Shown piece after piece: positions 7,092 through 49,276 of a stretch of DNA of 53,356 nucleotides. This stretch comes from Acidobacteriota bacterium (GTDB lineage Bacteria > Acidobacteriota > Thermoanaerobaculia > UBA5066 > Gp7-AA6), in NCBI GenBank assembly GCA_046726795.1, contig JBKPBH010000099.1, forward strand, positions 1 to 53,356. Direction: 5' to 3'. The notes beneath the pieces are model-generated. The model was given only the letters and a program-made list of their open reading frames with translations, was not told the DNA's origin and searched no databases. Position numbers and translations under genes: made by a program. The stretch's first letter is position 1. Each line of letters starts with the position of its first letter.

Positions 7092-7579
7092 CCGAGCTTC
7101 TTACCCATTTCATAGGCGTGGAGGCCGGGGCCGTAATAGTGGCGTAGCTCGCGACGGCGGCGTCGGAACCCCAGCGCTTCATAGAACGCAACCGCCGCTG
7201 CATTCTCGACCGAGACCTCGAGGCGCGCCTCGCGGGCTCCGGCTCTCGCAAAACGGGCGAGCAGCTCTTGGAGGAGCTCCCGCCCAAGCCCCCTCCGGCG
7301 CTGCTCCGGATGCACGTCGAGGGTCACGACGTGCGCGACTCGCCGCCCCGCCAGGTATCCGATCGCGAAGCCGGCAATCGTTCGGGCCTGCTCGGCGACG
7401 ACGCCCTGCGCCGTCGGGATGTCGAGGAATCGCGCGAGCTCCTTCCGCGAGTACGCGATTCCGGGCTCGAAGCACACCTGATCGAGTCGGTAAAGCTCTT
7501 CGAAGTCTGATGGAAGGATGTCCCGGAGAACAACGGAACCGGTGTGCGGTGCTCGGTCTTCGGTGCTCGGGGGAGCCAT
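6995..7579 (-). CDS. RimI-like GNAT N-acetyltransferase
   Basis: Acetyl-CoA motif TLDVHPEQRRRGLG, plus LEVSVEN, FYEALGF and YY. Confidence 0.85.
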   Translation of the reverse strand: MAPPSTEDRAPHTGSVVLRDILPSDFEELYRLDQVCFEPGIAYSRKELARFLDIPTAQGVVAEQARTIAGFAIGYLAGRRVAHVVTLDVHPEQRRRGLGRELLQELLARFARAGAREARLEVSVENAAAVAFYEALGFRRRRRELRHYYGPGLHAYEMGKKLGYRVARRRSTASVLPDSRNSSNLSEGTGRLKR

Positions 7580-7624
7580 TTCTCAGAGCCTACCCGAACA
7601 CCCAGCTCCGAACACCAAACACCG
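7540..7624. repeat. Inverted heptamer array (CGGTGYT / AACACCG)
   Basis: cggtgtg cggtgct cggtctt cggtgct ... aacaccc agctccg aacacca aacaccg. Confidence 0.8.
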
Positions 7625-7627
7625 GCT

Positions 7628-8110
7628 TCACCGACTCCGCATTGCGCGGTCGGCTTCCCGCCTCAAGTCCCGGTCGCGGATGGCATCGCGCTTGTCGTGC
7701 AGCTTCTTCCCCTTGACCAGAGCGATCTCCGCCTTGGCCTTCGAGCCCTTGAAGTAAAGGGAGAGCGGGACACACGAGACGCCCCGCGTCGCAACGGCGC
7801 CGGCCCAACGGTCGAGCTCCCGGCGATGGAGAAGGAGTTTGCGATCTCGCTCCGGAAGGTGGTTGGTCCAGGAGCCGGCCCCGTATGGCGAGATGTGCGC
7901 GCCCACGAGGAACGCCTCGCCTCCGCGGAAGCTCACGTAGGAGTCCTTCAGCTGAGCGCGTCCCTCCCGCAGCGATTTGACTTCGGTGCCCGTCAACACG
8001 AGGCCCGCTTCCGCGCGGTCCTCGACGAAGAACTCGTGAAACGCCTTCCGGTTCGTCGCGACCGTTTTGACCGCCGCCGCTCCGGCCGGCTGAGGATTCT
8101 TCCTGGACAT
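7628..8110 (-). CDS. smpB: SsrA-binding protein
   Basis: NRKAFHEF, EAGLVLTGTEVKSLR, RKLLLHRRE, KGKKLHDKR. Confidence 0.98.
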   Translation of the reverse strand: MSRKNPQPAGAAAVKTVATNRKAFHEFFVEDRAEAGLVLTGTEVKSLREGRAQLKDSYVSFRGGEAFLVGAHISPYGAGSWTNHLPERDRKLLLHRRELDRWAGAVATRGVSCVPLSLYFKGSKAKAEIALVKGKKLHDKRDAIRDRDLRREADRAMRSR

Positions 8111-8278
8111 GACGGAGGCAGTCTACCGAGGCGGGCGCGGAGAGCCCGCGGGCGTGGCTCGGAAACCACGCCATTGTTGCGTTCGCGCCACAAGGCAGGA
8201 TGATCCGACTGGTGGAAAGACCATCCCAACCCTCTGAAACCAAAGGGCCTGATCGGATCAGCGGCCGGCGCGCGCGGC

Positions 8279-8293
8279 TGGCACCGAAGCTGC
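8279..8293 (+). promoter_or_regulatory. Putative sigma-54 (-24/-12) promoter for lpxC
   Basis: TGGCAC-CGAAG-CTGC has exact GG-N10-GC spacing and ends 16 nt before the lpxC start. Confidence 0.55.
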
Positions 8294-8309
8294 GGAAGAA
8301 GGCTCCGGC

Positions 8310-14340: not shown

Positions 14341-14389
14341 CGGGCAACAGTTTATAATCGTGCGGATAGTGCACATCCCGACGGAGCCC

Positions 14390-14461
14390 AGACGGAAGAC
14401 GGAAGACGAGGAGTACGCGGCCGGGCCTCTTCGTCTGCCCCCTCCCCTTTCGTGTCTCACG
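14390..14461. repeat. Degenerate inverted heptamer array (AGACGGA)
   Basis: agacgga agacgga agacgag ... cttcgtct ...; the right arm is weak. Confidence 0.45.
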
Positions 14462-14478
14462 GCCCAGGGATTCCTCCG

Positions 14479-16722
14479 ATGAGCTCCCCGGGCGCGGCCG
14501 GCTCCTACCCCGGCAACCCGTCTCTACCGGTGGAGGTCCGCGAGAAAATCCTCATGACCTTTCGCCATGCCCTAGGCCTCTTTTCTTCGGGCCACGTCGA
14601 CGATTGCCTGATCGGCTGCGAGTTCATCCTCAAGATGGATCCCCGCTTCACGCCGGCCAAGCGTCTGCAGGAAAAAGTGCGAAACCGGGACTCCGACGTG
14701 GACATCAGCGAGCTGCAGGCGATGGTCGATCCGGGAACCGCCGGGGTCGGTCCGGCGCCGGCCCCGCCCGCGCGGCCCGCCCCCACCGAGGCGCGCCCGA
14801 CGCCTGCGCGGGAAGACAAACCGGACGTGGAGAGCCTCCTGGCCGAAGCCGGACAGAAGTTCGATGCGCGCGATTTCGACGGCGCCATCGCCCTCGCCAG
14901 CCGCGCGCTCACTCTCGACCACGGCAACCGAGAGGCGCTCGCGATCGTGGAGAAGGCCGCCGGAAAGAAAGCCACGCAGCCACTCGTCGAGACGAGCAGA
15001 GCGCGCGCCGAGCAGGGGATCGCGGCGGGCCGGCTCGCCGAGGCGCGGCAGGAGCTCGAGCGCATCCGCTCTCTGGACCCGTACAATCCCGCGACCGGCG
15101 AGCTCGAGCGCCGGATCGCCTCGGCCACCTCCGCGACGGCGGGACTCCCCCCGGCGCCGGCGGATTTCAGTCTCGAGCCCGGGGAGACCCCGGCCCGGCC
15201 CACCGGCGGATTGCGGGGCGAATCCGGTCCCGACCTGGCCGGACTCCCGAGCGAGCCGTTCGGCCTCGATCCTCTCTCACATCCCGCTTCCTTCGCCGAG
15301 ATCGAGCCTCCGGAAGCAGACGACGCGGAGGCCTCTTCCCTCGACTCCCTGTCGCCGGGAGAAGAAGCCCTGGTGCCTCCCCCGCCGCCGAGCGCGGACC
15401 TCTTCCTCCCTGCGGACGAGGCCGGAAATGCGTCCTCCATCTCCGATGCTTCGCTCGACGAAGAGGAGACGGGTGCCGCCCTGCAAGAAATCGCCTCGCT
15501 CCTGAAGCAAGGGGACGACATCTCCCGCAAGGGGGACCGCCAGCAGGCGATCGAGATCTGGTCCCGCGTCTTCCTGATCGACATCAACAACGCCGAGGCG
15601 GTGACGCGGATCGAGAAGGCCCGGCAGGAGATGGCTGAGGGGGCCAAGCTGGTTGCGGAGCTCCTGCGGAATGGCCGCGAGAGCTTCGAGGCGGGAGACC
15701 GCGACTCGGCGCAGAAGTTCTTCCTCCAGGTTCAGACGCTCGATCCGGACGAGGCGACCGCGCGGGTCTATCTCGAGCGCCTGGAACGGGGGCAGGTCGA
15801 GCCGGCACGGGCCGCCGGCGGCGCGCCCACCGCGTCGAGAGCGGCCGGACCGCCCTCGAAGGAAGCGCTGGACCTCGTGCCCGCGCCCGCCCCGGAGGCG
15901 CCGACCGGACGAAGGGTGGCGCTCCCGATCCAGCGGCGCGTGTTCGCGGTGGTCGGGACGTTCGTAGTGCTCATCCTCGTCGGCGTTTTCCTGGTGCTCA
16001 AAGGGGGCCGTTCGCAGGAACCCCCGACCCAGGTGGTTTCGAAGGCGTCGCTCGCGCACGCTCGCGACCTGCTCGGAAAAGGAGAGATCGAGGAAGCGCG
16101 GGCGGAGTTGAAGCGAATCCCGCCGGGGGACACCGACGCGTCAGAAGCGCGGAAAATGCTGGTCGAGCTGGGCCGTCGCGGTGTCTCCGAGGTCTCCGGC
16201 GCGTCTCCGGCCAGACCAGCGGGCGCCGGCGAGCGCGAGGGGCGCGGCGAAGGCGACCCCGCGCGCCTTCGGGTCAACGCCGAGAAGGCGCTCGGTGAGA
16301 AGCGGTACATCGAGGCCCTGAAGAATTTCAACCTCGCCGCCCCCGCCTTCCGCAACGATCCGGACTTCGCCCAGAAGCAGGGGCTCGCAGCCGAGAAAGT
16401 CACGGCCCTGACTCCGGCGGTCAAGTTCTACAACGAGGGGGAATACGAAACGGCGATCCCCATCCTCTGGCGCATCGTTCAGGAGGACCGCGACAACCAG
16501 GACGCGCGCTCCTACCTGCTGCGCTCCTACTACAACGAGGGAATCACGCAGCTCCAGAACGGCCTCTACCAGAAGGCGATGCAGGCTTTCCAGGAAGCGC
16601 TCGCGCTCGATCCCAACGACGCCGAGGCGGTGCGGCACCGGAAGTTCGCCGAGCGCTATCAGAAGGCGGACCTGGACCTGATGGGCCGCATCTACGTCCG
16701 CCACCTGAACCACCGGCCTTAG
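14479..16722 (+). CDS. Single-pass membrane protein with TPRs on both sides
   Basis: ATG 14479. TPR-like helical repeats, acidic/Pro-rich linker, one TM (VFAVVGTFVVLILVGVFLVL), C-terminal TPRs (AFQEALALDPNDAEA). Confidence 0.85.
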   Translation: MSSPGAAGSYPGNPSLPVEVREKILMTFRHALGLFSSGHVDDCLIGCEFILKMDPRFTPAKRLQEKVRNRDSDVDISELQAMVDPGTAGVGPAPAPPARPAPTEARPTPAREDKPDVESLLAEAGQKFDARDFDGAIALASRALTLDHGNREALAIVEKAAGKKATQPLVETSRARAEQGIAAGRLAEARQELERIRSLDPYNPATGELERRIASATSATAGLPPAPADFSLEPGETPARPTGGLRGESGPDLAGLPSEPFGLDPLSHPASFAEIEPPEADDAEASSLDSLSPGEEALVPPPPPSADLFLPADEAGNASSISDASLDEEETGAALQEIASLLKQGDDISRKGDRQQAIEIWSRVFLIDINNAEAVTRIEKARQEMAEGAKLVAELLRNGRESFEAGDRDSAQKFFLQVQTLDPDEATARVYLERLERGQVEPARAAGGAPTASRAAGPPSKEALDLVPAPAPEAPTGRRVALPIQRRVFAVVGTFVVLILVGVFLVLKGGRSQEPPTQVVSKASLAHARDLLGKGEIEEARAELKRIPPGDTDASEARKMLVELGRRGVSEVSGASPARPAGAGEREGRGEGDPARLRVNAEKALGEKRYIEALKNFNLAAPAFRNDPDFAQKQGLAAEKVTALTPAVKFYNEGEYETAIPILWRIVQEDRDNQDARSYLLRSYYNEGITQLQNGLYQKAMQAFQEALALDPNDAEAVRHRKFAERYQKADLDLMGRIYVRHLNHRP

Positions 16723-16723
16723 A

Positions 16724-16758
16724 GAATCGTGATCGGTGACTCGTGATCGGTGATCGGA
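16724..16758. repeat. Single-arm heptamer array (GATCGGT)
   Basis: gaatcgt gatcggt gactcgt gatcggt gatcgga. Confidence 0.75.
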
Positions 16759-16765
16759 AGGCGGC

Positions 16766-17398
16766 ATGAGCCGGCTCGACGAGCTCGATCTGGCGCCGAG
16801 CTCGGCCACGGCGGCGTCCGAGTCCTCCGGAGCGGATCTTCTCTTCGACGGGACACGCGAAGCCGCTCCGGCCGAGGTCGCCGTCTCCGACGGCAGTCCG
16901 CTCTTTGACCTGCCGCTGTCCGACGGCGCCGGGAAGTCTCCGACCGCCGCGCCCGGGCAGGGCACCAGGGCGGGTCGCGAAGGAGTGGCACCGCTTTCTG
17001 CTCGGGGCGCGGCTCTCGCAGCCGACGCGGCGCTCGTGCTCCTGCTCACCGCAGCTCCGCTGCTCGGGGCGACGGCCGGGCCCGGGCACGTCCTGGCGTC
17101 CCGCGGTCTCTGGTGGAGCGCCGTGTTCACCCTCTATCTCTTCTTCTTCGCCACGGTCGTCCCCCTCATGCTCTTCGGCAAGACTGTGGGGATGGCCCTG
17201 ACGGGATTGACCGCGCGCGGCGGGCCGGGGCGGACGCCTCTGACCGCGGCCGAGGCCTCACGGCGATGGATCGGCACCGCACTCACGCTCGCCGGGCTCG
17301 GCATTCCGTTGCTCGCGACCCGCCGCAACGCCGACGCTCCGAGCCTGGCCGACCGATTCTCGAGGCGGTCGCTCATGTTGGAAGAAGTCGATCGTTGA
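16766..17398 (+). CDS. RDD family membrane protein
   Basis: ARGAALAADAA, FGKTVGMALTGL, SLADRFS; three hydrophobic segments. Confidence 0.8.
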   Translation: MSRLDELDLAPSSATAASESSGADLLFDGTREAAPAEVAVSDGSPLFDLPLSDGAGKSPTAAPGQGTRAGREGVAPLSARGAALAADAALVLLLTAAPLLGATAGPGHVLASRGLWWSAVFTLYLFFFATVVPLMLFGKTVGMALTGLTARGGPGRTPLTAAEASRRWIGTALTLAGLGIPLLATRRNADAPSLADRFSRRSLMLEEVDR

Positions 17399-17460
17399 TC
17401 GTCGATAGTTAAGATGACACCGGGCGCCACAGAACTATCGACTATTGACTATCGACTATG
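17387..17460. repeat. Inverted heptamer array (GTCGATA / TATCGAC)
   Basis: gtcgatc gttgatc gtcgata gtt ... aac tatcgac tattgac tatcgac tATG. Confidence 0.9.
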
Positions 17461-19107
17461 AAGTCTCCTCTCAAGATCGCCGTCGCGCAGATCGACACAA
17501 CCGTCGGGGATTTCTCCGGAAACGCGGAGAAGATCCTGGAGCTCGGGCGGCGCGCGGAGCGGGAGGGGTCCGACCTCGTGCTCTTTCCGGAGCTGGCCGT
17601 GTGCGGTTATCCTCCCCGGGACCTCGTCGAGCGTCGGGCCTTCATCACCGAGTCCGAGCGCACTGCGGCGCGGATCGCGAAGGCGAGCACCCGCGCCCTC
17701 TGGCTCTACGGCTCTCTCGAGCGTAACCGGGCGAGGCGTGGCCGCCGCGTCTTCAACGCCGCGGTCGCAGCCCGCGGCGGGAGGGTCGTCGCGCGGTACC
17801 ACAAGAGGCTCCTGCCGACCTACGACGTCTTCGACGAAGGGCGCTACATCGAGCCGGGGAACCGCCCGCTCGTCCTGCGCCTGGCGGGCGGGCGGATCGG
17901 CGTGACGATCTGCGAGGACATCTGGAACGACAAGACCTTCTGGAGACACCCGCTTTATCCAACCGATCCGGTCCGGGACATGAAGCCGCTCCGCCTCGAC
18001 CTGCACGTCAACATCTCGGCGTCCCCCTGGACACGCGGCAAGGCGCGTCTGCGCGAGCGCATGATGCGCCAGATCGCGCGGCATACGGGAGTGCCCCTCG
18101 TCTCCTGCAACCTCGTCGGAGGCAACGACAGCCTGGTGTTCGATGGCGAGTCCTCGGCCTTCGACACCCGGGGACGGGTCGTCGCGCGGGGCGAATCCTT
18201 CCGCGAGGACTTCTGGATGATCGAATTGCCGGGCGGCTCGGGGCCCGTCCGCAAGCGGGAGCCGGATGTCGCGAGACTCGCGCGGGCGCTCCGGCTGGCC
18301 CTGGCGGACTACGCGGGCAAGTGCGGGTTCTCGAGCGCCGTCCTGGGCCTCTCGGGGGGAATCGACTCCGCCGTAACCGCGACCCTCGCCGCGGAGGCTC
18401 TCGGGCCGGACCGGGTCCTGGGGGTTGCGATGCCCGGCCCTTACTCGTCGGAGGGGAGCCTGCGCGACGCACGGGAGCTCGCGAGTCGGCTTGGCCTCCG
18501 GCTGCTGGAGATTCCGATCGTTCCGGTCTTCGAGGCCTACCGCGCGGTCCTCGCCCCGGCGTTCGGGGTGGGCGACTGCGTGGCCGCCGAAGAGAACCTG
18601 CAGGCACGCATCCGCGGAGCGATCCTGATGGCCCTGTCCAATCGGTTCGGGCACCTCGTGCTCTCCACCGGAAACAAGTCGGAGCTCGCGGCCGGCTACT
18701 GCACCCTCTACGGAGATATGGCGGGGGGTTACGCGCTCCTCTCCGACGTCCCCAAGACGCTCGTGTATGAGCTGGCCCGGGAACTCAACCGGGAGGGGGA
18801 AAGGATCCCCGCCTCTTCGATCTCCAAGGAGCCCTCGGCGGAGCTGCGCCCCAACCAGAAGGACAGCGACACGATCCCCCCGTACGTCGTCCTCGATTCT
18901 CTGATCGAGGCGCTCGTCGACCGTTCCCTCCCGGCGGCCTCGGCCGCGGCCAGCGCGCGTGTCCCTGTCGATCTCGCGCGGGACATCGCGCGGCGCATCG
19001 ACCGCAACGAGTACAAGCGCCGGCAGATGCCGCCCGGACCGAAGGTCACCGCGCGGGCGTTCGGCGATGGCCGCCGCTATCCGATCGCGCAGAAGTTCCG
19101 CGTGTGA
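17458..19107 (+). CDS. nadE: Glutamine-dependent NAD+ synthetase
   Basis: Nitrilase domain with E-K-C triad (FPEL, YHK, ICEDIW), plus GLSGGIDSA, ENLQARIRG, GNKSE and PSAELRPNQKD. Confidence 0.97.
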   Translation: MKSPLKIAVAQIDTTVGDFSGNAEKILELGRRAEREGSDLVLFPELAVCGYPPRDLVERRAFITESERTAARIAKASTRALWLYGSLERNRARRGRRVFNAAVAARGGRVVARYHKRLLPTYDVFDEGRYIEPGNRPLVLRLAGGRIGVTICEDIWNDKTFWRHPLYPTDPVRDMKPLRLDLHVNISASPWTRGKARLRERMMRQIARHTGVPLVSCNLVGGNDSLVFDGESSAFDTRGRVVARGESFREDFWMIELPGGSGPVRKREPDVARLARALRLALADYAGKCGFSSAVLGLSGGIDSAVTATLAAEALGPDRVLGVAMPGPYSSEGSLRDARELASRLGLRLLEIPIVPVFEAYRAVLAPAFGVGDCVAAEENLQARIRGAILMALSNRFGHLVLSTGNKSELAAGYCTLYGDMAGGYALLSDVPKTLVYELARELNREGERIPASSISKEPSAELRPNQKDSDTIPPYVVLDSLIEALVDRSLPAASAAASARVPVDLARDIARRIDRNEYKRRQMPPGPKVTARAFGDGRRYPIAQKFRV

Positions 19108-19120
19108 CCGGACTCTCCCC

Positions 19121-19798
19121 ATGAGCGAGAAATACGTCTGGAAGGAGATCCCGGGCTCGTCGCACGACGTGCTGCGCCGGCGCATCCGCGCGTTGCCGCC
19201 CGGCCTCCGGTTGCTCGACCTCGGAGCCGCCGGCGGCCACCTGGGCCGCGCCGTAAGGGATCGATGCGCCTTCATCGCGGGGGTCGAGCCCCACCCGCCG
19301 TCCGGCTCGGCGAAGGCGGGCTACGACGACTGGCGCGAGGTGGACGCCCTGCACGCTGGAGAGTGGAGCGAGTATTTCGACGTCGTCGTCTGTGCGGATG
19401 TGCTCGAGCACGTGCTGAACCCCCTTCGACTGCTGGAGTCGATCCGCGTGTGGCTGAAGCCGAGCGGTGTGCTGCTGATCTCGATCCCGAACGTGGCGAA
19501 CATCTCCGTGCGCCTCGCGCTCCTCTTCGGTCAGTTCCGCTATGCCGAGCGCGGAATCCTCGACGACAGCCACGTCGCCTTCTACACGCGAGCGAGCGCG
19601 ATGGCCCTCCTGGAAGAAGGAGGGTTGCGGATCCGAGCGATCGAGCCGACGACGATGCCCTATGAACTCGCGTCGCCGATTCTCGCGCGCGCCCCCTGGA
19701 CCCTGCCGGCGAGGGCCTTCGCGAGGGTCAGCGCGAAGGCGTGGCCGACGCTGTTCGGGTACCAGTTCGTCTTCGAAGCGGTCAAGAAAGAATTCTAG
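19121..19798 (+). CDS. Class I SAM-dependent methyltransferase
   Basis: LLDLGAAGG, FDVVVCADVLEH, SIPNVAN, GILDDSH. Confidence 0.88.
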   Translation: MSEKYVWKEIPGSSHDVLRRRIRALPPGLRLLDLGAAGGHLGRAVRDRCAFIAGVEPHPPSGSAKAGYDDWREVDALHAGEWSEYFDVVVCADVLEHVLNPLRLLESIRVWLKPSGVLLISIPNVANISVRLALLFGQFRYAERGILDDSHVAFYTRASAMALLEEGGLRIRAIEPTTMPYELASPILARAPWTLPARAFARVSAKAWPTLFGYQFVFEAVKKEF

Positions 19799-19876
19799 AT
19801 TTCGATTTTGGATTCTCGATTGACGACGAACCGAGAGCTCCCGGAATCCGGAATCCAGAATCCAGAATCCAAGATG
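19791..19876. repeat. Inverted heptamer array (GATTCTG / AGAATCC)
   Basis: aattcTAGatttc gattttg gattctc gatt ... ggaatcc ggaatcc agaatcc agaatcc aagATG. Confidence 0.9.
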
Positions 19877-20593
19877 GAAGGCGCGAGCCTCGTGATCCCC
19901 GCGTACGACGAGCGCAAGCGCATCGAGGCCTGCCTGCGATCGGTTGCCAATTGGATCCGGACTCGCCCCGGCGGCTGGGACTGGGAGGTCATCCTCGTAG
20001 ACGACGGCTCCTCCGACGGGACCAGGGGGGCGGCGCGCCAGATCGCGGGCGAGATCGGCCTCCCGCTCGAGATCCTTCGCCACGAGAAGAACCGCGGTAA
20101 GGGCGCGGCACTCCGCACGGGTGTTCTGGCTTCCCTCGGGGACCCCGTGCTGCTCGCTGACACGGACCTCTCGACACCGCTGACGGAATGGGTCAAGCTC
20201 GCCGAGCGCCTCCCCACGCACCCGGTGGCGATCGGATCCCGCGCGATCGAGGCAGGGCTCGTGCGCCGCAAGCAGCCCCTCTACCGCCGCCTGGTCGGCA
20301 AGACCGGCAACGTGCTCGTGCGTCTGCTCGTCGTCCCCGGCATCCGCGACACGCAGTGCGGCTTCAAGCTCTTCCGGGGCGACGTGGCCCGCGAGCTCTT
20401 CGGGAAGGCCCGGGTCGACGGCTTCGCGTACGACATGGAGATCCTCTACCTGGCGCGCCGCCGGGGCTACGCGATCGCTGAGGTGCCCGTCCTCTGGTTC
20501 AACTCTCCCGAATCGAAGGTCTCGCTCCTGCGCGACGCGATCCCCACGCTCTGGGATCTCCTGCGCCTGCGCTGGCTCCACCGAAAGGAATAG
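19874..20593 (+). CDS. GT2 polyprenyl-phosphate glycosyltransferase (ALG5/DPM-like)
   Basis: LVIPAYDE, VDDGSSDGT, NRGKGAA, DTDLS, DTQCGFKLF. Confidence 0.92.
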   Translation: MEGASLVIPAYDERKRIEACLRSVANWIRTRPGGWDWEVILVDDGSSDGTRGAARQIAGEIGLPLEILRHEKNRGKGAALRTGVLASLGDPVLLADTDLSTPLTEWVKLAERLPTHPVAIGSRAIEAGLVRRKQPLYRRLVGKTGNVLVRLLVVPGIRDTQCGFKLFRGDVARELFGKARVDGFAYDMEILYLARRRGYAIAEVPVLWFNSPESKVSLLRDAIPTLWDLLRLRWLHRKE

Positions 20594-20596
20594 CCG

Positions 20597-34567: not shown

Positions 34568-34571
34568 TTTT

Positions 34572-35453: not shown

Positions 35454-35464
35454 AGCTGACCCGG

Positions 35465-35548
35465 AGCCGTGAAACGTAAGACGTCAAACGTAAAACGAAG
35501 TCGAGCAATGCCTTGCCACGTTTTACGTTTTCCGTTTTACCGTTTACG
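35465..35548. repeat. Inverted heptamer array (CGTAAAA / TTTTACG) in the ftsE-ftsX gap
   Basis: cgtgaaa cgtaaga cgtcaaa cgtaaaa ... cgtttta cgttttc cgtttta ccgttta cg. Confidence 0.9.
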
Positions 35549-35555
35549 ATTCTCG

Positions 35556-36260: not shown

Positions 36261-37765
36261 GGCTGCTCTCGTCGCTTCTTTTCGCGGAGCAACTCCTTCT
36301 GAAGGGCCGCGCGTACAGCCGCCGGATCGGCGCCGCCACCGATTGACTTGATGACCTGGCCCATAAACCAACCAAACGTTTGTGTCCTGCCGGCGAGGTA
36401 CTGATTGACCTGTTCGGCATTGTTCCCAAGCGTTTCCGCGACTGCCTTGTAAATGGCATCACTGTCGTCGAGAACACCCAGACCCATTCGCTTCACGATC
36501 GTTGCGGCATTCTCCGTCGACGTGAGCATCTCGGGCAGAACTCGATCCTTGGCTCGGGCCACATCAATCTGCTTCTTCTCGACGAGCCGGAGGAGGCCTG
36601 CCAGGCGCTCGGGCGAGACGGGAAACGAGAGCGCGTCTTCCGAAGAGATCTTTCGTTCCTTCATCCGGCGCAGCACCTCACCCGTCACCCAGTTGGTGGC
36701 CTGCTTCGCCGGCGCGCCGGCGCCGACGACCTGCTCGAAGTAGTCCGCGAGCTCCCTGGCCGAGGTGAGCGTTTCCGCGTCGGCGCGGGAGAGACCGTAC
36801 TGTGAGACGAAGCGCTTCTCCCGCGCCCGCGGCAGCTCGGGGAGATCGGAGGCGGCGCGCGCCGCCCAGGCTTCCTCCACGATGAGGGCCCCAAGATCCG
36901 GCTCGGGGAAGTAGCGGTAGTCGTGCGCTTCCTCCTTGCCGCGCATCGACACCGTGCGGCCGGCGGCGGCGTCCCAGAGGCGGGTCTCGAGGACGACCTT
37001 CTCCCCGCGCTCGAGAGCCTCGGCCTGCCGCCCGATTTCGTGCTCGATCGCCTTCGCGACGAATCGGATCGAGTTCAAGTTCTTGATCTCGACGCGCGTC
37101 CCGAAATCCGCGCCTTCCTCGGCCCGGATCGAGACGTTGGCGTCGCAGCGCAGGTTCCCCTTCTCCATGTCGGCGTCGGAGACCCCGGTGTAACGCAGCA
37201 GTCGCCGCAGCTCCGTCAGGTAGGCCGCCGCTTCCCCCGGCGAGCGAAGGTCTGGCTCCGAGACGATCTCGACCAGGGCGACGCCGCATCGGTTCCAGTC
37301 CACGAGCGAGACGCTGGCCGGCACGTCGTCGTAGGGCGTGTCGTGCAGGAGCTTGCCGGCGTCCTCCTCGAGATGGATGCGCACGAGCCGGATCGTCTTC
37401 GGTCCCGCCGAGGTTTCGATCTCGATGGATCCGCCGGTCGCGATGGGCCGGTCGAACTGACTGATCTGGTAGCCCTTCGGCAGGTCCGGATAGAAGTAGT
37501 TCTTTCGCGCGAACCGCGAGTCGTGGTGGACCCGCGCGCCCACGGCGGCCGCGAGCTTCAAGGCGAGTGTCACGGCGCGACGGTTCGTGACCGGAAGCGT
37601 TCCCGGGAACCCCAGGCAGACGGGGCACGTGGCGGAGTTGGCCGGCGCTCCCACCGTGACCGGGCAAGAGCAGAAGAGCTTGGAGCGGGTCTGGAGCTGG
37701 GCGTGGACCTCCAGGCCGATGACGGGGAAAACCCGCGTCTTTACAGGCATTTCCAGCGAGGACAC
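36257..37765 (-). CDS. gatB: Asp/Glu-tRNA amidotransferase subunit B
   Basis: IGLEVHAQL, RKNYFYPDLPKGYQISQ, HLEEDAGK, RCDANVS, EIKNLNS, DYRYFPEPDL. Confidence 0.97.
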   Translation of the reverse strand: MSSLEMPVKTRVFPVIGLEVHAQLQTRSKLFCSCPVTVGAPANSATCPVCLGFPGTLPVTNRRAVTLALKLAAAVGARVHHDSRFARKNYFYPDLPKGYQISQFDRPIATGGSIEIETSAGPKTIRLVRIHLEEDAGKLLHDTPYDDVPASVSLVDWNRCGVALVEIVSEPDLRSPGEAAAYLTELRRLLRYTGVSDADMEKGNLRCDANVSIRAEEGADFGTRVEIKNLNSIRFVAKAIEHEIGRQAEALERGEKVVLETRLWDAAAGRTVSMRGKEEAHDYRYFPEPDLGALIVEEAWAARAASDLPELPRAREKRFVSQYGLSRADAETLTSARELADYFEQVVGAGAPAKQATNWVTGEVLRRMKERKISSEDALSFPVSPERLAGLLRLVEKKQIDVARAKDRVLPEMLTSTENAATIVKRMGLGVLDDSDAIYKAVAETLGNNAEQVNQYLAGRTQTFGWFMGQVIKSIGGGADPAAVRAALQKELLREKKRREQP

Positions 37766-40985: not shown

Positions 40986-40998
40986 GGAGGAGAAGTTA

Positions 40999-41084
40999 TC
41001 AGGTGTCAGTCTTCGGGTTTCGGTTCCATATGAGAACGGGATTCCGCAAAAAACTGAGACCCGAAGACTGAGAACTGAGAACTA
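40999..41084. repeat. Inverted heptamer array (TCAGTTC / GAACTGA)
   Basis: tcaggtg tcagtct tcgggtt tcggttc ... aaactga gacccga agactga gaactga gaacta; contains the glmS stop. Confidence 0.88.
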
Positions 41085-42908
41085 TTCCACCGTCACGCTC
41101 TTGGCGAGGTTCCTCGGCTGGTCCACGTCGCAGCCCCTCCGCACGGCGACGTGGTAGGCGAAGAGCTGGAGCGGAATGACCGAGAGAATCGGTTGCAGCT
41201 CCGGCGCCGTCTCCGGGATCACCAGGACTTCGTCGGCGGCCGCTGCGATCTCCTCGTCGGCGCGCGTCGTGACCACGATCGCGATCCCGTCGCGGGACTT
41301 GACCTCCCGGAGGTTGGACAGGGTCTTCTCGCGCCAGTCGTCGTGGGGCGCCAGCACCACGACCGGCAGGTTCTCGTCCACCAGGGCGATCGGACCGTGC
41401 TTCATCTCCCCCGCCGGATACCCCTCGGCGTGAATGTAGGAGATCTCCTTCAGTTTCAGCGCCCCCTCGAGCGCCACAGGGTAATGGAGGCCCCGGCCGA
41501 GGAACAGGAAGTCCCGAGCGCCGTGGTATTGCCGGGCGAGCTCCTCGATCCGCCCCTCGAGCGCGAGAGTCTGGGAGGCCGCCTTGGGCAGATGCGCCAA
41601 GGCGGTCCTCTCTTCCGGCGAAAGGCCCCGGGCCAGGCCGCGGGACTCGCGCAGCTTCGCGGCCGCCAGATACAGGACGGCGAGCTGGGTCGTGAACGCC
41701 TTGGTCGACGCGACGCCGATCTCCGGCCCGGCGTGCGTCGGGAGAACGGCCTCCGCCATCCGGGCGATCTGGCTCCCCGCGACATTCACGATGGCGGCGA
41801 GCGGAGATCCCGCGCGCCGGGCCTCTCCGAGAGCGGCGACCGTGTCGGCCGTCTCTCCGGATTGCGAGATCCCGATCGTGAGTGTGCGGCCGTCCACGAC
41901 GGGCCGGCGGTAGCGGAACTCGCTGCCGTAGTCGACCTCGACCGACAGCCGGGCCATTCTCTCGATGAGAAACTTGCCGATCAGCGCGGCGTGCCACGAG
42001 GTGCCGCAGGCGAGCAGCAGGACGCGCTCGTAGCGGGCGACGCGCCCGGGCTCGAAGAGCTCCGAGCCGAGAGAGAGCTCGCCGGACTCGAGCGACACTT
42101 TTCCTCCCATCGTCTCGGCGAGCGCGGTCGGCTGCTCATGGATCTCCTTCAACATGAAATGGCGGTAGCCCCCCTTCTCGGCGGCCACCGCGTCCCAAAG
42201 GATCCGGTGCGGCACACGGCGGACCGCCCGGCCCTCCGGATCGCAGATGCGGACCGCCGAGGCGTCCACGCGTGCCAGGTCTCCCTCCTCGAGGAAGACG
42301 ACGTCCCGCGTCCACGGCGCGAGCGCCACGGGGTCGGAGGCGACGAAGTTCTCGCCCGAGCCGAGCCCGAGGACGATGGGAGGGCCCGACCGGGCCGCGA
42401 CCAGGACGCCGGGCTCGCCGCTCGAGGCGACGACGACCGCGTAGGCGCCGGAGAGTCGGCCGCACGCACGCCGGACGGCGGTGAGCAGGTCCCCTTCGAG
42501 CGCCTCCTCGACTTCGTGGGCGAAGACCTCCGTATCGGTCTCGCTCGAGAACCTGTGGCCCACCGCGGCGAGGGCGGCCTTGCGTTCGGCGAAGTTCTCC
42601 AGGATCCCGTTGTGGACCACGACGACCCTCCCCGTGCAGTCGGTCTGCGGGTGCGCGTTGGCCTCGGTGGGCCTCCCGTGGGTCGCCCACCGCGTGTGCC
42701 CGACGCCGGTCGTGCCGGGAGACGTCGAACCCGCCAGCCGCGCAAGCAGGTTGGAGAGTTTGCCGGGGCTACGATGGATCGCGAAGGCGCCGTCGGAAAG
42801 GGTCGCGATGCCGGCGGAATCGTAGCCGCGGTACTCGAGCCGCTTGAGCCCCTCCAGGAGCAGTGGCGCCGCTTCCTTTGGCCCGACGTAGCCGACGATG
42901 CCGCACAT
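41082..42908 (-). CDS. glmS: Glutamine--fructose-6-phosphate aminotransferase
   Basis: MCGIVG, LEYRGYDSAG, GHTRWATHG, SQSGETAD, PRNLAKSVTVE. Confidence 0.98.
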   Translation of the reverse strand: MCGIVGYVGPKEAAPLLLEGLKRLEYRGYDSAGIATLSDGAFAIHRSPGKLSNLLARLAGSTSPGTTGVGHTRWATHGRPTEANAHPQTDCTGRVVVVHNGILENFAERKAALAAVGHRFSSETDTEVFAHEVEEALEGDLLTAVRRACGRLSGAYAVVVASSGEPGVLVAARSGPPIVLGLGSGENFVASDPVALAPWTRDVVFLEEGDLARVDASAVRICDPEGRAVRRVPHRILWDAVAAEKGGYRHFMLKEIHEQPTALAETMGGKVSLESGELSLGSELFEPGRVARYERVLLLACGTSWHAALIGKFLIERMARLSVEVDYGSEFRYRRPVVDGRTLTIGISQSGETADTVAALGEARRAGSPLAAIVNVAGSQIARMAEAVLPTHAGPEIGVASTKAFTTQLAVLYLAAAKLRESRGLARGLSPEERTALAHLPKAASQTLALEGRIEELARQYHGARDFLFLGRGLHYPVALEGALKLKEISYIHAEGYPAGEMKHGPIALVDENLPVVVLAPHDDWREKTLSNLREVKSRDGIAIVVTTRADEEIAAAADEVLVIPETAPELQPILSVIPLQLFAYHVAVRRGCDVDQPRNLAKSVTVE

Positions 42909-42921
42909 ATAACGGATTATG

Positions 42922-43066
42922 CAGGTCTCAGGGACGAGGTGTCAGGGAAAAACAGGTGTCAGGTGCCAGGTGTTAGGTGCCAGGGACGAGGGCCGCTACG
43001 CGTTGGCTCAACCCGACACCTAACACCTGAAACCTGCGTTTCACCTGACACTTTCAACCTGGCACC
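42922..43066. repeat. Inverted heptamer array (CAGGTGT / ACACCTG)
   Basis: caggtgt caggtgc caggtgt taggtgc cagg ... cccgac acctaac acctgaa acctg ... cctgacac ... cctggcacct. Confidence 0.88.
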
Positions 43067-44493
43067 TTTTTCTTCTTCTCACGGCGGCGGGCCACCCAGC
43101 CCTCGTCGATCGTCTGGGGGGCGCGGGTCAGGGCGAGCGCACCAGAGGGGACATCTCGCGTGATCGTAGAGCCCGCGCCGATCCAGGCGCCGTCGCCGAC
43201 CGTCACGGGCGCGACGAGTTGCGTGTCGCTGCCGATGAAGGCGTCGCGCCCGATCGTCGTGCGATTCTTCTTCTCGCCGTCGTAATTGCAGGTGATGACG
43301 CCGGCGCCGATGTTGGTCTCTTCGCCGATCTCCGTGTCTCCGAGGTAGGAGAGGTGAGACGCCTTGACGCCGCGGCGCAGCACCGCTTGCTTCGTCTCGA
43401 CGAAGTTTCCGACCCGCACGTCCTCCTCGAGAACCGTGCCCGGACGCACTCGCGCGAAGGGGCCCACGCGAGAGCGCGCCCCGATTCTCGCCCCCTCGAC
43501 GTCGCAATGTGGTCCGACCACCGCTCCCGAGGCCAGCTCCGAGTCGGCCACCCGGGTGAAGGGAAGAACCTCGCAGCCCTCTCTCAGCACGCAATGCCCC
43601 TCGAGCGAGACGAAGGGGTGGATGACGACGTCCGGCTCGAGCTCGACCCTCGGACCGATGCGAGTGGTGTTGGGATCCACGACCGAGGCGCCTGCGTCCA
43701 GCGCCCGCTCGACAGCCAGACGTCTCGCCATTTCCTCCGCGGCCGCCAGGTCTCGGCGGGTGCGGATGCCCCAGGCCTCACGCCAATCCTCCGCCTCGAC
43801 GGCCTCCACCCTTCCGGAGTCCGAGGCGAGCACGGCGACGAGGTCGGAGAGGTCCGCCCCTCCCCGGCGCCCTCGGGCGGCTCCGCCGAGGGCGGCGAGC
43901 GCGGCCCTGAGGGGGCGCCCCGCGAAGCAGTACACGCCGGCCAGGGCCTCGGCGCCCGCGGCGGCATCTCCCGCCGCGGCGATCCTGCGCACGCGGCCCG
44001 ACGCGTCCCGCACGACACGCCCGAAGTCCGCCGTGTCGGGCGGACGGAACGAGAGAATCGCGAGATCGAGGGAGCGTCGCCTCTGCCGGTCGAGCAGGGC
44101 CCGCAGCGTCTCGGCCCGCAAGAGCGGAACGCCCCCCGACAACACGACGACGGGGCTAGCGGAGCCCGGCAGACTCGCCAGCGCTTGCCGAGTCGCGTCG
44201 GCGGTTCCGCCCGGCGGGTCCTGCACGACAACGGTCACGGGACGTTCGGCCAGCTCCTGTCCGATCTCCCGGCGCGCGCGGCCGATCACGACGACCGTCC
44301 GGGCCGGCGAGAGCGTCTCCGCCGTCGCGAGGGCCGCCTCGAGAAGAGTGCGGCCGCCGACACGGTGGAGGACGCCCGGCCGCGAGGAACGCAGCCGGGA
44401 TCCGACACCGGCCGTGAGGAGGATCACGCAGGGCCGCCCTGCCCGCCCGCGCGCGGAGGGTGTTTTCTTCTTGCTCCCGCGACCCGGCTTCAC
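43054..44493 (-). CDS. glmU: GlmU-like protein: intact acetyltransferase, degenerate uridyltransferase domain
   Basis: GPFARVRPG, GNFVETK, HLSYLGD, NIGAG, NYDG; directly upstream of glmS. N-terminal motifs are altered. Confidence 0.9.
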   Translation of the reverse strand: MKPGRGSKKKTPSARGRAGRPCVILLTAGVGSRLRSSRPGVLHRVGGRTLLEAALATAETLSPARTVVVIGRARREIGQELAERPVTVVVQDPPGGTADATRQALASLPGSASPVVVLSGGVPLLRAETLRALLDRQRRRSLDLAILSFRPPDTADFGRVVRDASGRVRRIAAAGDAAAGAEALAGVYCFAGRPLRAALAALGGAARGRRGGADLSDLVAVLASDSGRVEAVEAEDWREAWGIRTRRDLAAAEEMARRLAVERALDAGASVVDPNTTRIGPRVELEPDVVIHPFVSLEGHCVLREGCEVLPFTRVADSELASGAVVGPHCDVEGARIGARSRVGPFARVRPGTVLEEDVRVGNFVETKQAVLRRGVKASHLSYLGDTEIGEETNIGAGVITCNYDGEKKNRTTIGRDAFIGSDTQLVAPVTVGDGAWIGAGSTITRDVPSGALALTRAPQTIDEGWVARRREKKKKVPG

Positions 44494-46840: not shown

Positions 46841-47338
46841 ATGAATCGCGAGTCAGTCCTCTTTCCGGTCGAAGAGCCGGACGGCGAGGCGAGCCTGCAG
46901 AGGCTGTACGACCGCCTCGCCGTTCGATTCGGCCTGGATCCCGCGCGTGTCCGTCTCTCGAGCCGCAAGCTGACCGGAGGCGAGATCGTATACGGCCCGC
47001 CGCACCGGATCACCATATCCGGGCACCTTTCGCTCGCGGAACGAGAGGAGACACTCCGGCACGAGGCGGCGCACGCGTGGGCGTTCCGCCGGAAGGGCCC
47101 CCGCGTCGGACACGGTCCGCTCTTCAAGAGACTGGCACAGCAGATCGGAGCGAAGAAGGGCGCGGCGCCGGAGACCCCCGCCCTGGCCGCTTTCCGCGAG
47201 CGACGCACGATCGCGTACCGATGCGCCGGATGCGGCGTGCTCTTCCGGAGGATCCGCCCGTTCCGCGGCGCTCGGGACTGCCTGGCGTGCTATCGCGCCG
47301 GAAGGCCCTCTCGCTTGAAGAGGGTCCGTAGTCCGTAG
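46841..47338 (+). CDS. SprT-like zinc metalloprotease
   Basis: TLRHEAAH, GHGPLF, C-terminal CxxC...CxxC ribbon. Confidence 0.85.
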   Translation: MNRESVLFPVEEPDGEASLQRLYDRLAVRFGLDPARVRLSSRKLTGGEIVYGPPHRITISGHLSLAEREETLRHEAAHAWAFRRKGPRVGHGPLFKRLAQQIGAKKGAAPETPALAAFRERRTIAYRCAGCGVLFRRIRPFRGARDCLACYRAGRPSRLKRVRSP

Positions 47339-47401
47339 TCATTCAGTCCATATTGCGTAGTCACGATCCGACAAAGGACCAAGGACTGAGGACCAAGGAC
47401 T
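47323..47401. repeat. Inverted heptamer array (AGTCCGT / AAGGACY)
   Basis: ggtccgt agtccgt agtc ... aaggacc aaggact gaggacc aaggact; contains the SprT stop. Confidence 0.85.
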
Positions 47402-47426
47402 CGTCACCCGAAATACGATAGCGCGC

Positions 47427-48344
47427 GTGACGAGCTTCCCTGCCGGTTATCACATCGGCCATTGGACCGACTCGACGCGCCGCACCGGCTGCACAGTCAT
47501 CCTCCCTCCGGCCGGGACGACCGCGGCCGTGGACGTCCGCGGAGGCGCGCCGGGGACCCGCGAGACCGGGGTGTTTACGCCCGGCAACCTCGTTTCCGAG
47601 ATCCACGCGCTCGTCTTCGCGGGCGGGAGCGCCTTCGGTCTGGCCTCGGCGAGCGGCGTGACGTCCTGGCTCCGGCGCCGCGGCGTCGGATTCGCCATGG
47701 GACCGGCCCGGGTCCCGATCGTCGCCGCGGCGATTCTGTTCGACCTCGGCGTCGGAGAGGCCGGCGCCTACCCCGACGAGGCGGCGGGCGAGGCGGCGTG
47801 CGAGGACGCGCGCGGCGGCGAGATCGAAACGGGCGCGGTCGGGGCCGGCAGCGGAGCGACCGTCGGTAAGGTGCTCGGGGTCGCGCGGGCGTCCCGCGGG
47901 GGCGTGGGGGCGGCCTCGGTGGCAATCCGCGGCGGGCACGGCGTCTCGGCCCTGGTGGCCGTCAACGCCTTCGGCGACGTGGTGGATCCCGAGAGCGGGA
48001 GGCGCCTGGCGGGAGCCCGCGGTGAGGGAGAGCTCTTCTCGACGGCCCGCGCCCTGTGCGAGGCGGATCTGAGGGAGAGCCCGCTCGCTGGAGCGCACAC
48101 GACGCTCGTTTGCGTCGCGACGGACGTTCCCTTCGAGGCGGGGTCTCTGAAGCGCGTGGCGATCGAGGCGCACGACGGGCTCTCGCGCGCCGTCCGCCCC
48201 GCGCACACGGTCGTAGACGGCGATATCGCCTTCGCTCTCGCCCCCGCCGGCCAGCCTCCTCCTCTGCTGACGAGACTGCGCGTTGGGACTGCGGCGGCGG
48301 AGGCCGTGGCGCGGGCGATCGTGAATGCGGTCACAGCGCCGTGA
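47427..48344 (+). CDS. P1/S58 (DmpA-like) peptidase
   Basis: TGCTVIL, DVRGGAPGTRET, GGSAFGL, GAGSGATVGK, VNAFGDV, PAHTVVDGD. Confidence 0.92.
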   Translation: MTSFPAGYHIGHWTDSTRRTGCTVILPPAGTTAAVDVRGGAPGTRETGVFTPGNLVSEIHALVFAGGSAFGLASASGVTSWLRRRGVGFAMGPARVPIVAAAILFDLGVGEAGAYPDEAAGEAACEDARGGEIETGAVGAGSGATVGKVLGVARASRGGVGAASVAIRGGHGVSALVAVNAFGDVVDPESGRRLAGARGEGELFSTARALCEADLRESPLAGAHTTLVCVATDVPFEAGSLKRVAIEAHDGLSRAVRPAHTVVDGDIAFALAPAGQPPPLLTRLRVGTAAAEAVARAIVNAVTAP

Positions 48345-49219
48345 CCCAGTCGCCGCCTGGTCCCGAGGAGAGGGCAGGGGGAAGGCGGGGCGTCCTGCTC
48401 GTGCTGGGGGCGGCGCTGCTGTGGTCCACCGGCGGTGTCGGCATCAAGGCGCTCGAGGACCCGCCGCTCAAGGTCGCTTTCTACCGCTCCGCCTTCGCGG
48501 CGGCCGCGCTGTTTCTGATTCTGCGCCCCCGAGTCCGGCGATGGAGCCCGGCCTTCCTGGCGGCTCTCGCGACCTACGCGGCCTGCCTGATCTCATTCGT
48601 GGTCGCGACGAAGTGGACGACGGCCGCCAACGCGATCTTCCTCCAGTACGCCGGTGTGGTCTGGGTGCTCCTGCTGTCGCCGGCGGTCGTGGGCGAGCCC
48701 CTGCGCGCGGGCGACGCTGCGGCCGTGGCGGTCGCGGTCGCCGGCATGGCCCTTTTCTTCGTGGGTCGGTTCGGCCCGGGCGGGCTCGGAGATCTGATGG
48801 CTCATCCTTCGAGCTTCTTCTTCGCGGGCCTCGTCCTTTCGCTCAAGCGGGAGGGTGAGGGGGGCGCACAGGCCGCCGTGAGCTGGGGAAATGTCCTCGC
48901 CGTCGTGGCGCTTCTCCCTTTCGTCTCCCGCGACCTGTCACTCTCGCCGAGGTCCGCCGCCATCCTTGTTTTTCTCGGCGTTGTCCAGCTCGCCTGCGCT
49001 TACGTCCTCTTCGTGCGCGGCCTGAGACACGTCACCGCGACGCAGGCTTCCCTGATCGGCATGGTCGAGCCCGTCGCCAACCCCGTCTGGGTCTTCCTGT
49101 TCATCGGGGAGCGTCCGAGCGCCTTCGCCCTCGCCGGAGGAGCGATCGTGTTGGCCGCAGTCGCGTGGAGATCCCTGGCCGCCGCGCCGATCGGAGAACC
49201 ACTCCCTCCTCCGGATTGA
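48341..49219 (+). CDS. EamA/DMT family transporter
   Basis: The GTG start overlaps the upstream stop. AALLWSTGG, TTAANAIFLQY, EPVANPVWV; about 10 TMs. Confidence 0.9.
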   Translation: MTQSPPGPEERAGGRRGVLLVLGAALLWSTGGVGIKALEDPPLKVAFYRSAFAAAALFLILRPRVRRWSPAFLAALATYAACLISFVVATKWTTAANAIFLQYAGVVWVLLLSPAVVGEPLRAGDAAAVAVAVAGMALFFVGRFGPGGLGDLMAHPSSFFFAGLVLSLKREGEGGAQAAVSWGNVLAVVALLPFVSRDLSLSPRSAAILVFLGVVQLACAYVLFVRGLRHVTATQASLIGMVEPVANPVWVFLFIGERPSAFALAGGAIVLAAVAWRSLAAAPIGEPLPPPD

Positions 49220-49226
49220 GGTGGCG

Positions 49227-49276
49227 AGTGCTGGTCCTGAGTCTGTCCAAGGACTACGGACCAGGGACCAAGGACT
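49227..49276. repeat. Inverted heptamer array (GTCCT / AAGGACY)
   Basis: agtgctg gtcctga gtc ... aaggact acggacc agggacc aaggact. Confidence 0.75.

Follow-up and report, generated by a model that had tools for sequence, protein, structure and literature searches.

Intergenic heptamer-array hairpins in an Acidobacteriota genome as probable gene-less members of a PF05635 cassette family

Introduction

The 23S rRNA genes of Leptospira hold intervening sequences (IVS) that bear an open reading frame (ORF), and cyanobacteria carry short tandemly repeated repetitive (STRR) heptamers. Repetitive extragenic palindromic elements and bacterial interspersed mosaic elements (REP/BIME) with their RAYT transposases, as well as MITEs (miniature transposable elements with inverted repeats), are short intergenic hairpin repeats that reach hundreds of copies in lineage-specific families that appear to bloom and fade. 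Here, we analyzed inverted arrays of tandem heptamers at 16 gene junctions of contig JBKPBH010000099.1 (GenBank assembly GCA_046726795.1), a 53,356-nt stretch from an Acidobacteriota bacterium that is called the window throughout. The best explanation, to which we assign a probability of about 0.65, is that these sites are gene-less members of a family of hairpin cassettes that carries a PF05635 gene in its full form.

Several described systems share part of this layout. The 23S rRNA IVS of Coxiella burnetii with its S23p ORF has been described as a selfish element (PMC4990558), and PF05635 proteins resemble Avd, the reverse-transcriptase cofactor of diversity-generating retroelements (DGR; PMC10053308). 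Heptanucleotides are the commonest long simple-sequence repeats (SSRs) of bacteria (Mrazek et al., 2007, as cited in PMC4679880), and polymerase slippage is the explanation offered there. In two Xanthomonas genomes 186 and 183 GGGAATC arrays were counted, mostly of four units, with 70 and 75 in convergent pairs able to form stem-loops (Rehm et al., 2015; PMC4692102). Xanthomonas repeats of similar length did not lie at the same genes in two related species, their function is given as unknown in that article, and its authors stated that no detailed literature on heptameric repeats existed (PMC4692102). TAACTGA direct repeats occur in 2–6 copies near start codons in Beggiatoaceae, Cyanobacteria and Bacteroidetes, with 169 direct sets and 1 indirect set, and a protein binding one heptamer per subunit has been proposed for them (MacGregor, 2015; PMC4679880). 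A paper tying heptamer repeats to PF05635 or IVS proteins was not found in a literature search that left most subscription journals outside.

Results

The genome under study (G000; codes with G, C and L denote genomes, contigs and loci) comprises 3.14 Mb on 229 contigs with 67% G+C and is 85.5% complete, and the window is its contig C99. Intergenic DNA makes up 9.0% of the genome, and gene starts are estimates from a home-made codon model. We refer to a gene-less hairpin as a solo, to a hairpin with a PF05635 gene in its loop as a cassette, and to the PF05635 protein, which is the one encoded in intervening sequences of 23S rRNA, as IVP. At the 16 junctions (Table 1) the spacers consist almost entirely of 3–7 heptamers followed by a short unique segment and then by the heptamers in reverse complement; no site has an ORF in its loop, and all 16 lie between protein genes. 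For 15 of the 16 coordinates Tandem Repeats Finder (TRF) listed a period-7 array on the spot or adjacent to it, and the arrays at 23694 and 31772, which are below its score, are visible by eye and by folding. Each site was folded against 100 dinucleotide shuffles. Twelve sites reached z values of -2.2 or lower (down to -7.1), with folding energies (dG) of -28 to -80 kcal/mol. Two further sites, 19791 and 31772, are weak, with visible arms that are short or degenerate, and 14390 and 16724 are essentially one-armed. The shared plan described in the initial annotation is therefore real, with 12 clear hairpins, two weak and two one-armed sites; 16724 is one-armed as it stated, though not the only such site, 14390 being another. 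Its estimate of about 12 unit types is close to our count, in which the 15 distinct best units group into 11 clusters when at most one mismatch is allowed.

The same plan extends over the genome. Period-7 arrays numbered 561 in the whole of G000, compared with 19 in a Markov-1 shuffle, while periods 6 and 8 gave 67 and 69. In intergenic DNA we counted 349 arrays of period 7 against a shuffled mean of 1.4 (maximum 4), none of period 5 and two of period 6. Arrays are mostly intergenic (547 of 796), and 277 of these 547 have an inverted partner within 150 nt, compared with 15 in a complement-only control and 12 direct repeats. Both the period-7 excess and the preferential inverted pairing that the initial annotation had expected are thus present. 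A strict catalogue contains 182 hairpin loci in G000 with a median length of 85 nt (interquartile range, IQR, 80–93). Since it recovers only 7 of the 16 window sites, the true number of hairpins is probably about twice as high. The 182 loci carry 58 canonical unit types under a fixed plan, and a single MITE sequence, already doubted from the window, cannot explain them. The plan is not limited to heptamers, since intergenic period-8 arrays also exceed the shuffled expectation (64 against 1.9) and form 14 strict inverted pairs.

Heptamer arrays of the same kind enclose genes. G000 has four PF05635 matches, three intact (C229, C145 and C112) and one broken (C17), each between inverted heptamer arrays with a unit of its own; C17 and C38 hold the two halves of one cassette. 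A cassette consists of two inverted arrays of 4–5 heptamers with the gene for a PF05635 four-helix bundle in the loop. Two arm pairs about 380 nt apart, each around a small ORF, turned up in a wider-spacing scan, and when the arms of the C229 and C145 cassettes are joined by a short linker they fold at -62 and -47 kcal/mol. The fifth locus, at the start of C16 and thus at a contig end, retains only a truncated N-terminal part of the gene, next to a CGTNAAA arm. All five PF05635 loci of G000 are hence associated with heptamer arrays, which bears out the tie to four-helix-bundle genes that had been suggested initially; for the GxxExxY genes named along with them, no PF13366 match was found in the 85.5% complete assembly. 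At C16:1–366 a 184-nt unit forms a tandem duplicate of 93% identity, each copy comprising a truncated N-terminal four-helix-bundle gene fragment and a CGTNAAA arm; this duplicate could be genuine or have been created by the assembly.

The association reaches far beyond this genome. In a survey of 20 relatives, from which one unpublished genome was excluded, 29 PF05635 loci were examined and 21 had inverted period-7 arrays on both sides. A second survey, with a 5-protein alignment as query, took the best 80 of 596 confirmed relatives, one genome per species, from more than 12 phyla and including two archaeal metagenome-assembled genomes; 73 loci had at least 200 nt on both flanks. Inverted period-7 arms occurred at 47 of these 73 loci, whereas periods 5, 6, 8 and 9 were represented by 1, 0, 1 and 0. 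Another 22 loci had an array on at least one side, and 4 were without any. The nearest named loci of this survey came from Acidobacteriota metagenome-assembled genomes. Genomes of the genus have 2–6 PF05635 genes, G009 has 0 and the outgroups have 1–3. Gene number was considered as a driver of the solos and rejected, as copy number fails to track solo density.

A search for arms 150–5000 nt apart with an ORF between them gave equal counts of inverted and direct pairs, and most pairs were neighboring full hairpins of one family. Apart from the PF05635 loci, only one small Smr-domain ORF and, less certainly, one DUF503-like ORF proved to be enclosed. The latter two lie inside inverted arrays at C160:6848–7174 and C131:11374–11768, respectively, their names being read from the translations without a search; either could be additional cargo, or just a gene with a junction element on each side.

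Solos and cassettes use the same units. An exact cassette unit was present in 41% of the 182 solos, compared with 3.6% of letter-shuffled controls (maximum 8.8%), and a cassette unit within one mismatch in 76% compared with 30%. In the window, 11 of the 16 sites are within one mismatch of a cassette unit. The kinship is not confined to the repeat: the solo at 42918–43070 shares composite arms and loop-edge bases with the cassettes L038, L039 and L040 of G005, G003 and G007. Furthermore, 49 loci of the CGTNAAA family, among them 31208–31298 and 35462–35552, agree outside the repeat as well, in their stem base and in the bases at loop entry, and the A-rich arm is 5' in all of them. We consider it highly probable that the IVP hairpin-cassette family includes the window sites as solo members. 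Among 19 cassettes, protein identity correlated with unit distance at a Spearman rho of -0.28 (permutation p 0.0005), in relatives that are not independent. This is only suggestive of closer IVP proteins having closer units and of unit families following the branches of the IVP tree.

One cassette locus is orthologous in G002, G006, G004, G001 and, as the C16 remnant, G000, and its arms differ by species. We compared the prevalence of four unit families by counting three-unit patterns on both strands (Table 2). The commonest pattern equals the unit of the species' own cassette at the orthologous locus in four of the five species (G000, G002, G006 and G004), and the named outgroups gave 0 or 1 in these counts.

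At orthologous junctions of the congeners (ten genomes of the genus, syntenic across the window with 77–81% gene identity) the hairpin may be absent or present with a different unit. The glyA junction bears five unit types across the genomes compared, and in G009 or G012 the spacers at the glyA and yebC–ruvC junctions are reduced to 0–3 nt. The window itself contains an empty state, a 13-nt spacer at 19108 that is filled in G002, G009 and G001. On other contigs, solos of G000 correspond to cassettes: the junction of solo C191:30827–30904 is gene-filled in G002, G005 and G008, and that of solo C229:2303–2394 in G005 and G007. The C191 solo bears the unit and prefix of the C112 cassette of G000, not the units of the relatives' cassettes at that junction. 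Absent, solo and filled states thus occur at the same junctions in relatives, a polymorphism that the initial annotation had predicted. Its idea that the window sites are empty cassette sites is supported insofar as solos are the gene-less counterpart of cassettes; in the relatives compared, none of the window junctions was found to hold a gene-filled element, the filled/solo pairs being on other contigs. Inverted ends are present at solos. Compensated pairs account for 12 of 31 consensus pairs at junction 35454 (ftsX–ftsE) and for 7 of 29 at junction 31091. At ftsX–ftsE the stem base is kept while units and pairs change, which can be either compensation or wholesale replacement.

The hairpins have a defined anatomy and placement. 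Arms most often comprise five units (166 of 332 arms), with a median stem of 33 bp and a median apical region of 7 nt. Complementarity between the arms is itself 7-periodic (0.65 in register, 0.57–0.58 at ±7, 0.49–0.51 at ±14 and about 0.24 elsewhere), and consequently a slip of one arm by one unit costs little pairing. Relative to the end of the upstream stop codon, the first stem base at 132 co-directional junctions has a median position of -1 nt (IQR -10 to +3), and a median of 8 nt separates the end of the stem from the predicted start codon. This layout, as a layout, agrees with the earlier suggestion that the hairpins loop out inserted DNA so that the operon stays intact. Solos occupy 132 of 1877 tandem (7.0%), 29 of 345 convergent (8.4%) and 14 of 362 divergent junctions (3.9%).

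Units of the CGTNAAA family are hypervariable at their fourth base, which is A in 49–59% of them and any base otherwise, about equally in both arms, and many stems carry a single mismatch every 7 bp from this position. One hypervariable position per unit was rejected as a general rule: the most variable phase took a 0.42 share of deviations compared with 0.37 in the null, and the rule is true only of the CGTNAAA family. A scheme with one uniform and one variable arm was likewise rejected, as both arms of this family are about equally variable.

We also inspected rRNA genes. No period-7 arrays were found in the 23S rRNA genes of the congeners G002, G005 and G006 or of the outgroup G010, and the inserts match Intron_gpI; in the G000 assembly no 23S rRNA gene was found. 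An IVS in the 23S rRNA of the genus was thus rejected, since the long 23S genes hold group I introns and not heptamer hairpins. The 23S genes of three congeners (L184:3505–4016, L185:3506–3720, L186:2786–3046) are 560–900 nt longer than that of G010, and group I introns (RF00028) occupy one site in them, singly or as a pair.

The genes around the hairpins of the window are ordinary housekeeping genes, including uvrA, smpB, lpxC, NAD synthase, glyA, accD, yebC, ruvC, ftsE, ftsX, gatB, uvrD, glmS and glmU. A 999-aa protein encoded at 27701–30700 on the reverse strand has an unusual architecture, in which a receiver of the response-regulator type is joined to a Ser/Thr kinase domain and, at the C-terminus, to TonB_C. 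In the G006 ortholog (within L013) of the stretch 31772–31952, the place of the weak window hairpin is taken by a 757-nt insert without clear ORF that is bounded by terminal inverted repeats of about 20 nt. The orthologs of this stretch in the outgroups G010 and G012 carry, between ruvC and an OmpA-family gene, an extra conserved gene of about 290–320 aa that is missing in the genus of the window.

Table 1. Heptamer-array elements at the 16 window junctions (positions in the window, no strand assigned; units as left / right arm; dG in kcal/mol)
Site	Position	Element	Unit	Junction	dG	z	Cassettes and relatives
7540	7536–7625	solo hairpin	~CGGTGYT / AACACCG	doubtful 81-aa ORF to smpB	-43.3	-3.9	unit 1 mismatch from C229 cassette arm
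14390	14385–14465	degenerate element	GACGGAA x2.7 (left, TRF 14390–14408); right arm barely recognizable	formiminotransferase gene to TPR gene		-0.2	unit equals arm of G004 cassette L055
16724	16720–16765	single-arm array	GTGATCG x4	fills 43-nt spacer 5' of RDD-family gene		-0.3	no array at junction in G002, G001; different array in G005
17387	17383–17462	solo hairpin	GTCGATN / ACTATCG	overlaps RDD gene end and NAD synthase gene start		-3.7	unit 1 mismatch from C17/C38 cassette arms; other units or no hairpin in relatives
19791	19788–19876	solo hairpin	GATTTYG / GAATCCA (TRF arrays)	methyltransferase stop codon to glycosyltransferase start		-1.6	unit 1 mismatch from G003 cassette L060
23694	23690–23770	solo hairpin	GTCGAGR / ACTCTCG	glyA (SHMT) to HD phosphohydrolase gene		-4.5	four other unit types in relatives; none in G005, G009, G010, G016
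26326	26320–26415	solo hairpin	CGGGAGG / CCGCCTG	Mur-ligase-like gene to accD	-57.3	-3.0	unit 1 mismatch from G006 cassette L041
27613	27608–27700	solo hairpin	GAGTTGN / AACTCAT	74-aa ORF to kinase gene		-3.9	no hairpin in G009, G010, G012, G014, G016; other units in G005, G007, G001, G003
31212	31208–31298	solo hairpin, CGTNAAA family		yebC to ruvC; stem base takes in yebC stop codon		-5.3	spacer only 3 nt in G012
31772	31768–31850	weak solo hairpin	CGGNAGG	directly 3' of ruvC		-0.9	CGTNAGG hairpins at same place in G007, G001
34482	34478–34570	solo hairpin	AGTCCTT x4.7 / AAGGACY	convergent AI-2E transporter and ftsX genes	-46.9	-6.4	plain GC-rich hairpin instead in G006, G002, G005
35465	35462–35552	solo hairpin, CGTNAAA family		ftsX to ftsE		-4.8	stem base kept with CGTNAAA (G006), CGTNAGG (G002, G001), CGGGAGG (G007)
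40999	40995–41092	solo hairpin	~CAGTYTT / AACTGAG	uvrD/pcrA to glmS	-42.4	-5.8	unit 1 mismatch from cassettes L053, L054
42922	42918–43070	compound 153-nt solo hairpin, CAGGTGY family		glmS to glmU	-79.8	-7.1	
47323	47318–47405	solo hairpin	AGTCCGT / GACCAAG	overlaps SprT-like gene end		-2.9	unit 1 mismatch from G011 cassette L058
49227	49222–49300	solo hairpin	GGTCCTG / CCAAGGA (TRF array 49247–49275)	convergent EamA transporter and AAA_28 genes		-2.2	

Table 2. Matches to four three-unit patterns, both strands, per genome
Genome	CGTNAAA	CGTNAGG	CGGNAGG	CGGNAGA
G000	171	1	104	6
G002	11	166	33	6
G006	29	0	153	3
G004	0	0	0	77
G001	3	211	8	14
G007	2	108	49	100
G008	167	54	32	11
G009	0	3	6	3

Discussion

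If the window sites are gene-less cassettes, the full form would be a small insert, of which a solo would retain the arms plus some bases at either edge of the cargo. The hairpins lie exactly between a stop codon and the next start codon, mostly in co-directional gene strings, and because of this placement they are probably transcribed with the operon. On the operon RNA the stem of about 33 bp would loop the insert out at the stop/start boundary. By analogy with rRNA intervening sequences, RNase III might cut this stem, which we put forward tentatively. The heptamer arrays are probably recognized by IVP: the co-variation of unit and protein, the modal arm of five units, and the solved homologs 2GSC (XCC0516 of Xanthomonas campestris) and 2RLD, each with five chains per entry, all point in this direction. 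The five chains presumably form an Avd-like pentamer, and recognition could involve one unit per subunit. IVP would then be the element-specific factor in keeping or spreading the arms, and solos might derive from cassettes by gene loss or spread by themselves as non-autonomous copies. A more far-reaching version is doubtful, namely that each IVP is a sequence-specific array binder driving its own hairpin family, and that the resident variant imposes its cognate unit on junction hairpins genome-wide, through replacement or conversion, neither a reverse transcriptase nor a classical transposase being needed.

Several observations weigh against our explanation. G009 has no PF05635 match (96% complete) and a solo density of 3.5 strict pairs per 100 kb, compared with 4.2 in G000; the gene is thus not needed to keep solos. 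Conversely, G010 has a cassette with arms and no solos in 140 kb, so the gene is not sufficient for spread, and G016 has none in 140 kb either; both are sister genera of similar G+C. Sizes are bimodal: 130 inverted pairs are less than 50 nt apart and only 5 are 50–300 nt apart, and the IQR of solo length is just 80–93 nt. Owing to this scarcity of intermediate sizes, slow random decay of cassettes is disfavored, and a defined solo-making route or an independent spread of solos is favored. In G001 the cassette, with a broken gene, has a unit that is none of the four patterns, yet CGTNAGG dominates that genome (211 matches). The CGTNAAA cassette of G000 itself is a truncated remnant only, and no CGGNAGG cassette is present in the assembled 85.5% of G000 despite 104 matches to this pattern. 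Neither a target-site duplication nor a clean insertion boundary could be read, the nearest genomes being only 77–81% identical in genes. Finally, the predicted RNA is more stable in sense at 65 loci and in antisense at 67, an equality that gives no sign of selection acting on a particular transcript strand.

As a rival explanation, the hairpins could be kept mainly because they serve the host, as mRNA processing sites, stabilizers, insulators or stop-to-start bridges, with the kinship to cassettes reflecting origin only. Their exact stop-to-start placement, the continued occupancy of the same junctions in congeners despite differing units, the compensated pairs (12 of 31 and 7 of 29) and the lower occupancy of divergent junctions (14 of 362) than of tandem (132 of 1877) and convergent ones (29 of 345) fit such a role. 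However, the same junctions work with 0–3 nt spacers in G009, G012 and others, two sister genera do without solos in the 140 kb of each, and sense and antisense folds are equally stable. Moreover, none of the 10 hairpin sites in 16500–36400 fits a simple terminator pattern (11 terminator-like hits in that region, with 10.5 expected by chance), and the window has no Rfam match at gathering score. We therefore regard host function as an unlikely explanation. Ordinary long SSRs born by replication slippage, made inverted by template switching or selection for pairing and without any tie to the gene, would account for the high unit diversity (58 types in 182 loci), for the small cost of a whole-unit arm shift (0.65 compared with 0.57 at ±7), for one-armed arrays such as 16724 and 14390, and for the solos in G009, which lacks the gene; slippage has been proposed for heptamers (quoted in PMC4679880). 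Slippage does not lead one to expect the shared stem base, loop-entry bases and 5' A-rich arm in 49 CGTNAAA loci, the exact match to cassette units in 41% compared with 3.6% of controls, or a dominant family in each species that matches its own cassette. Two sister genera of similar G+C, which gave no inverted pair in the 140 kb covered for each, also speak against it, as do the arms beside the gene across phyla, which have period 7 at 47 of 73 loci and another period at only 2. On balance we find this origin quite unlikely.

Enzymes that could move or write the arms were considered as well. REP- or MITE-like elements might be moved by a conventional host transposase, for example of the RAYT/IS200-type Y1 kind acting on single-stranded DNA hairpins, and intergenic hairpin repeats in hundreds of copies are what such elements look like. 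Y1_Tnp matches occur in G000 (2) and in 8 of its 9 congeners, but also in the solo-free outgroups G010 (3 matches) and G016 (1), and G003 (72% complete) has none; dozens of unit types would also misfit one sequence-specific enzyme. This makes transposition by a Y1 enzyme very unlikely, and Y1 transposase was rejected as the genus-specific factor because its distribution does not track the solos. Telomerase- or DGR-like writing of the arms, in which the Avd-like protein recruits an enzyme that copies a short template repeatedly, would draw on the resemblance of PF05635 to Avd (PMC10053308) and on the hypervariable unit position of the CGTNAAA family. Yet this position is about equally variable in both arms, and 7 of the 10 genomes in the genus gave no RVT_1 match, among them G007 (97% complete) and G008 (95%), both with hundreds of arrays. 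Reverse transcription is scarcely credible as the source of the arms, and reverse transcriptase was dropped as genus-specific factor, RVT_1 not tracking the solos. The dedicated arm-writing mechanism suggested in the initial annotation is unproven. We return to gene-less membership in the PF05635 cassette family as the best explanation of the 16 sites.

This explanation joins two puzzles that are decades old, the excess of intergenic heptanucleotide repeats in bacteria and the role of the protein encoded in rRNA intervening sequences. The genus studied here is rich for both, with hundreds of gene-less hairpins and a handful of gene-carrying ones. If families driven by their cognate IVP exist, they would be a new kind of selfish protein-plus-repeat system, and they would explain the heptanucleotide excess and why rRNA intervening sequences carry a PF05635 gene. 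The elements also have practical consequences: they break assemblies, as seen from two cassettes of G000 at contig ends, and gene callers can be misled where they overlap stop or start codons. They may shape operon expression in a widespread soil lineage.

Compared with described systems, the hairpins share with REP/BIME elements and MITEs a short intergenic form and a high copy number, but they differ in their internal 7-nt periodicity, in the many unit families under one plan, and in an associated gene for a four-helix bundle rather than a transposase. TAACTGA repeats are likewise intergenic heptamer arrays; these are direct and of one unit (PMC4679880), in contrast to the inverted pairs of many units found here. 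Like the GGGAATC arrays of Xanthomonas and the GGGGA(C/T)T arrays of Nostoc, the elements are intergenic tandem heptamers in convergent inverted pairs (PMC4692102). Those arrays, however, have one G-rich unit that is read as a quadruplex former, and the passages of that article on these repeats report no tie to a gene family (PMC4692102), whereas the 58 units here mostly lack G-tracts and the commonest, CGTNAAA, has none. The intergenic period-7 excess, scattered over phyla, is that of bacterial heptanucleotide SSRs in general; the inverted layout and the link to a gene are not part of that account as summarized in PMC4692102 and PMC4679880.

Like the elements, the ORF-bearing IVS of 23S rRNA is a small insert that is closed off by a long stem between its two ends, and it has the PF05635 gene in the loop, as only the filled members do. 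An IVS is regarded as a selfish element, tolerated by the host transcript through looping out, and solos and cassettes can be likened to it in this respect. They differ from IVS in lying between protein genes, in their heptamer-array arms, in their hundreds of copies and in the gene-less state of the window copies.

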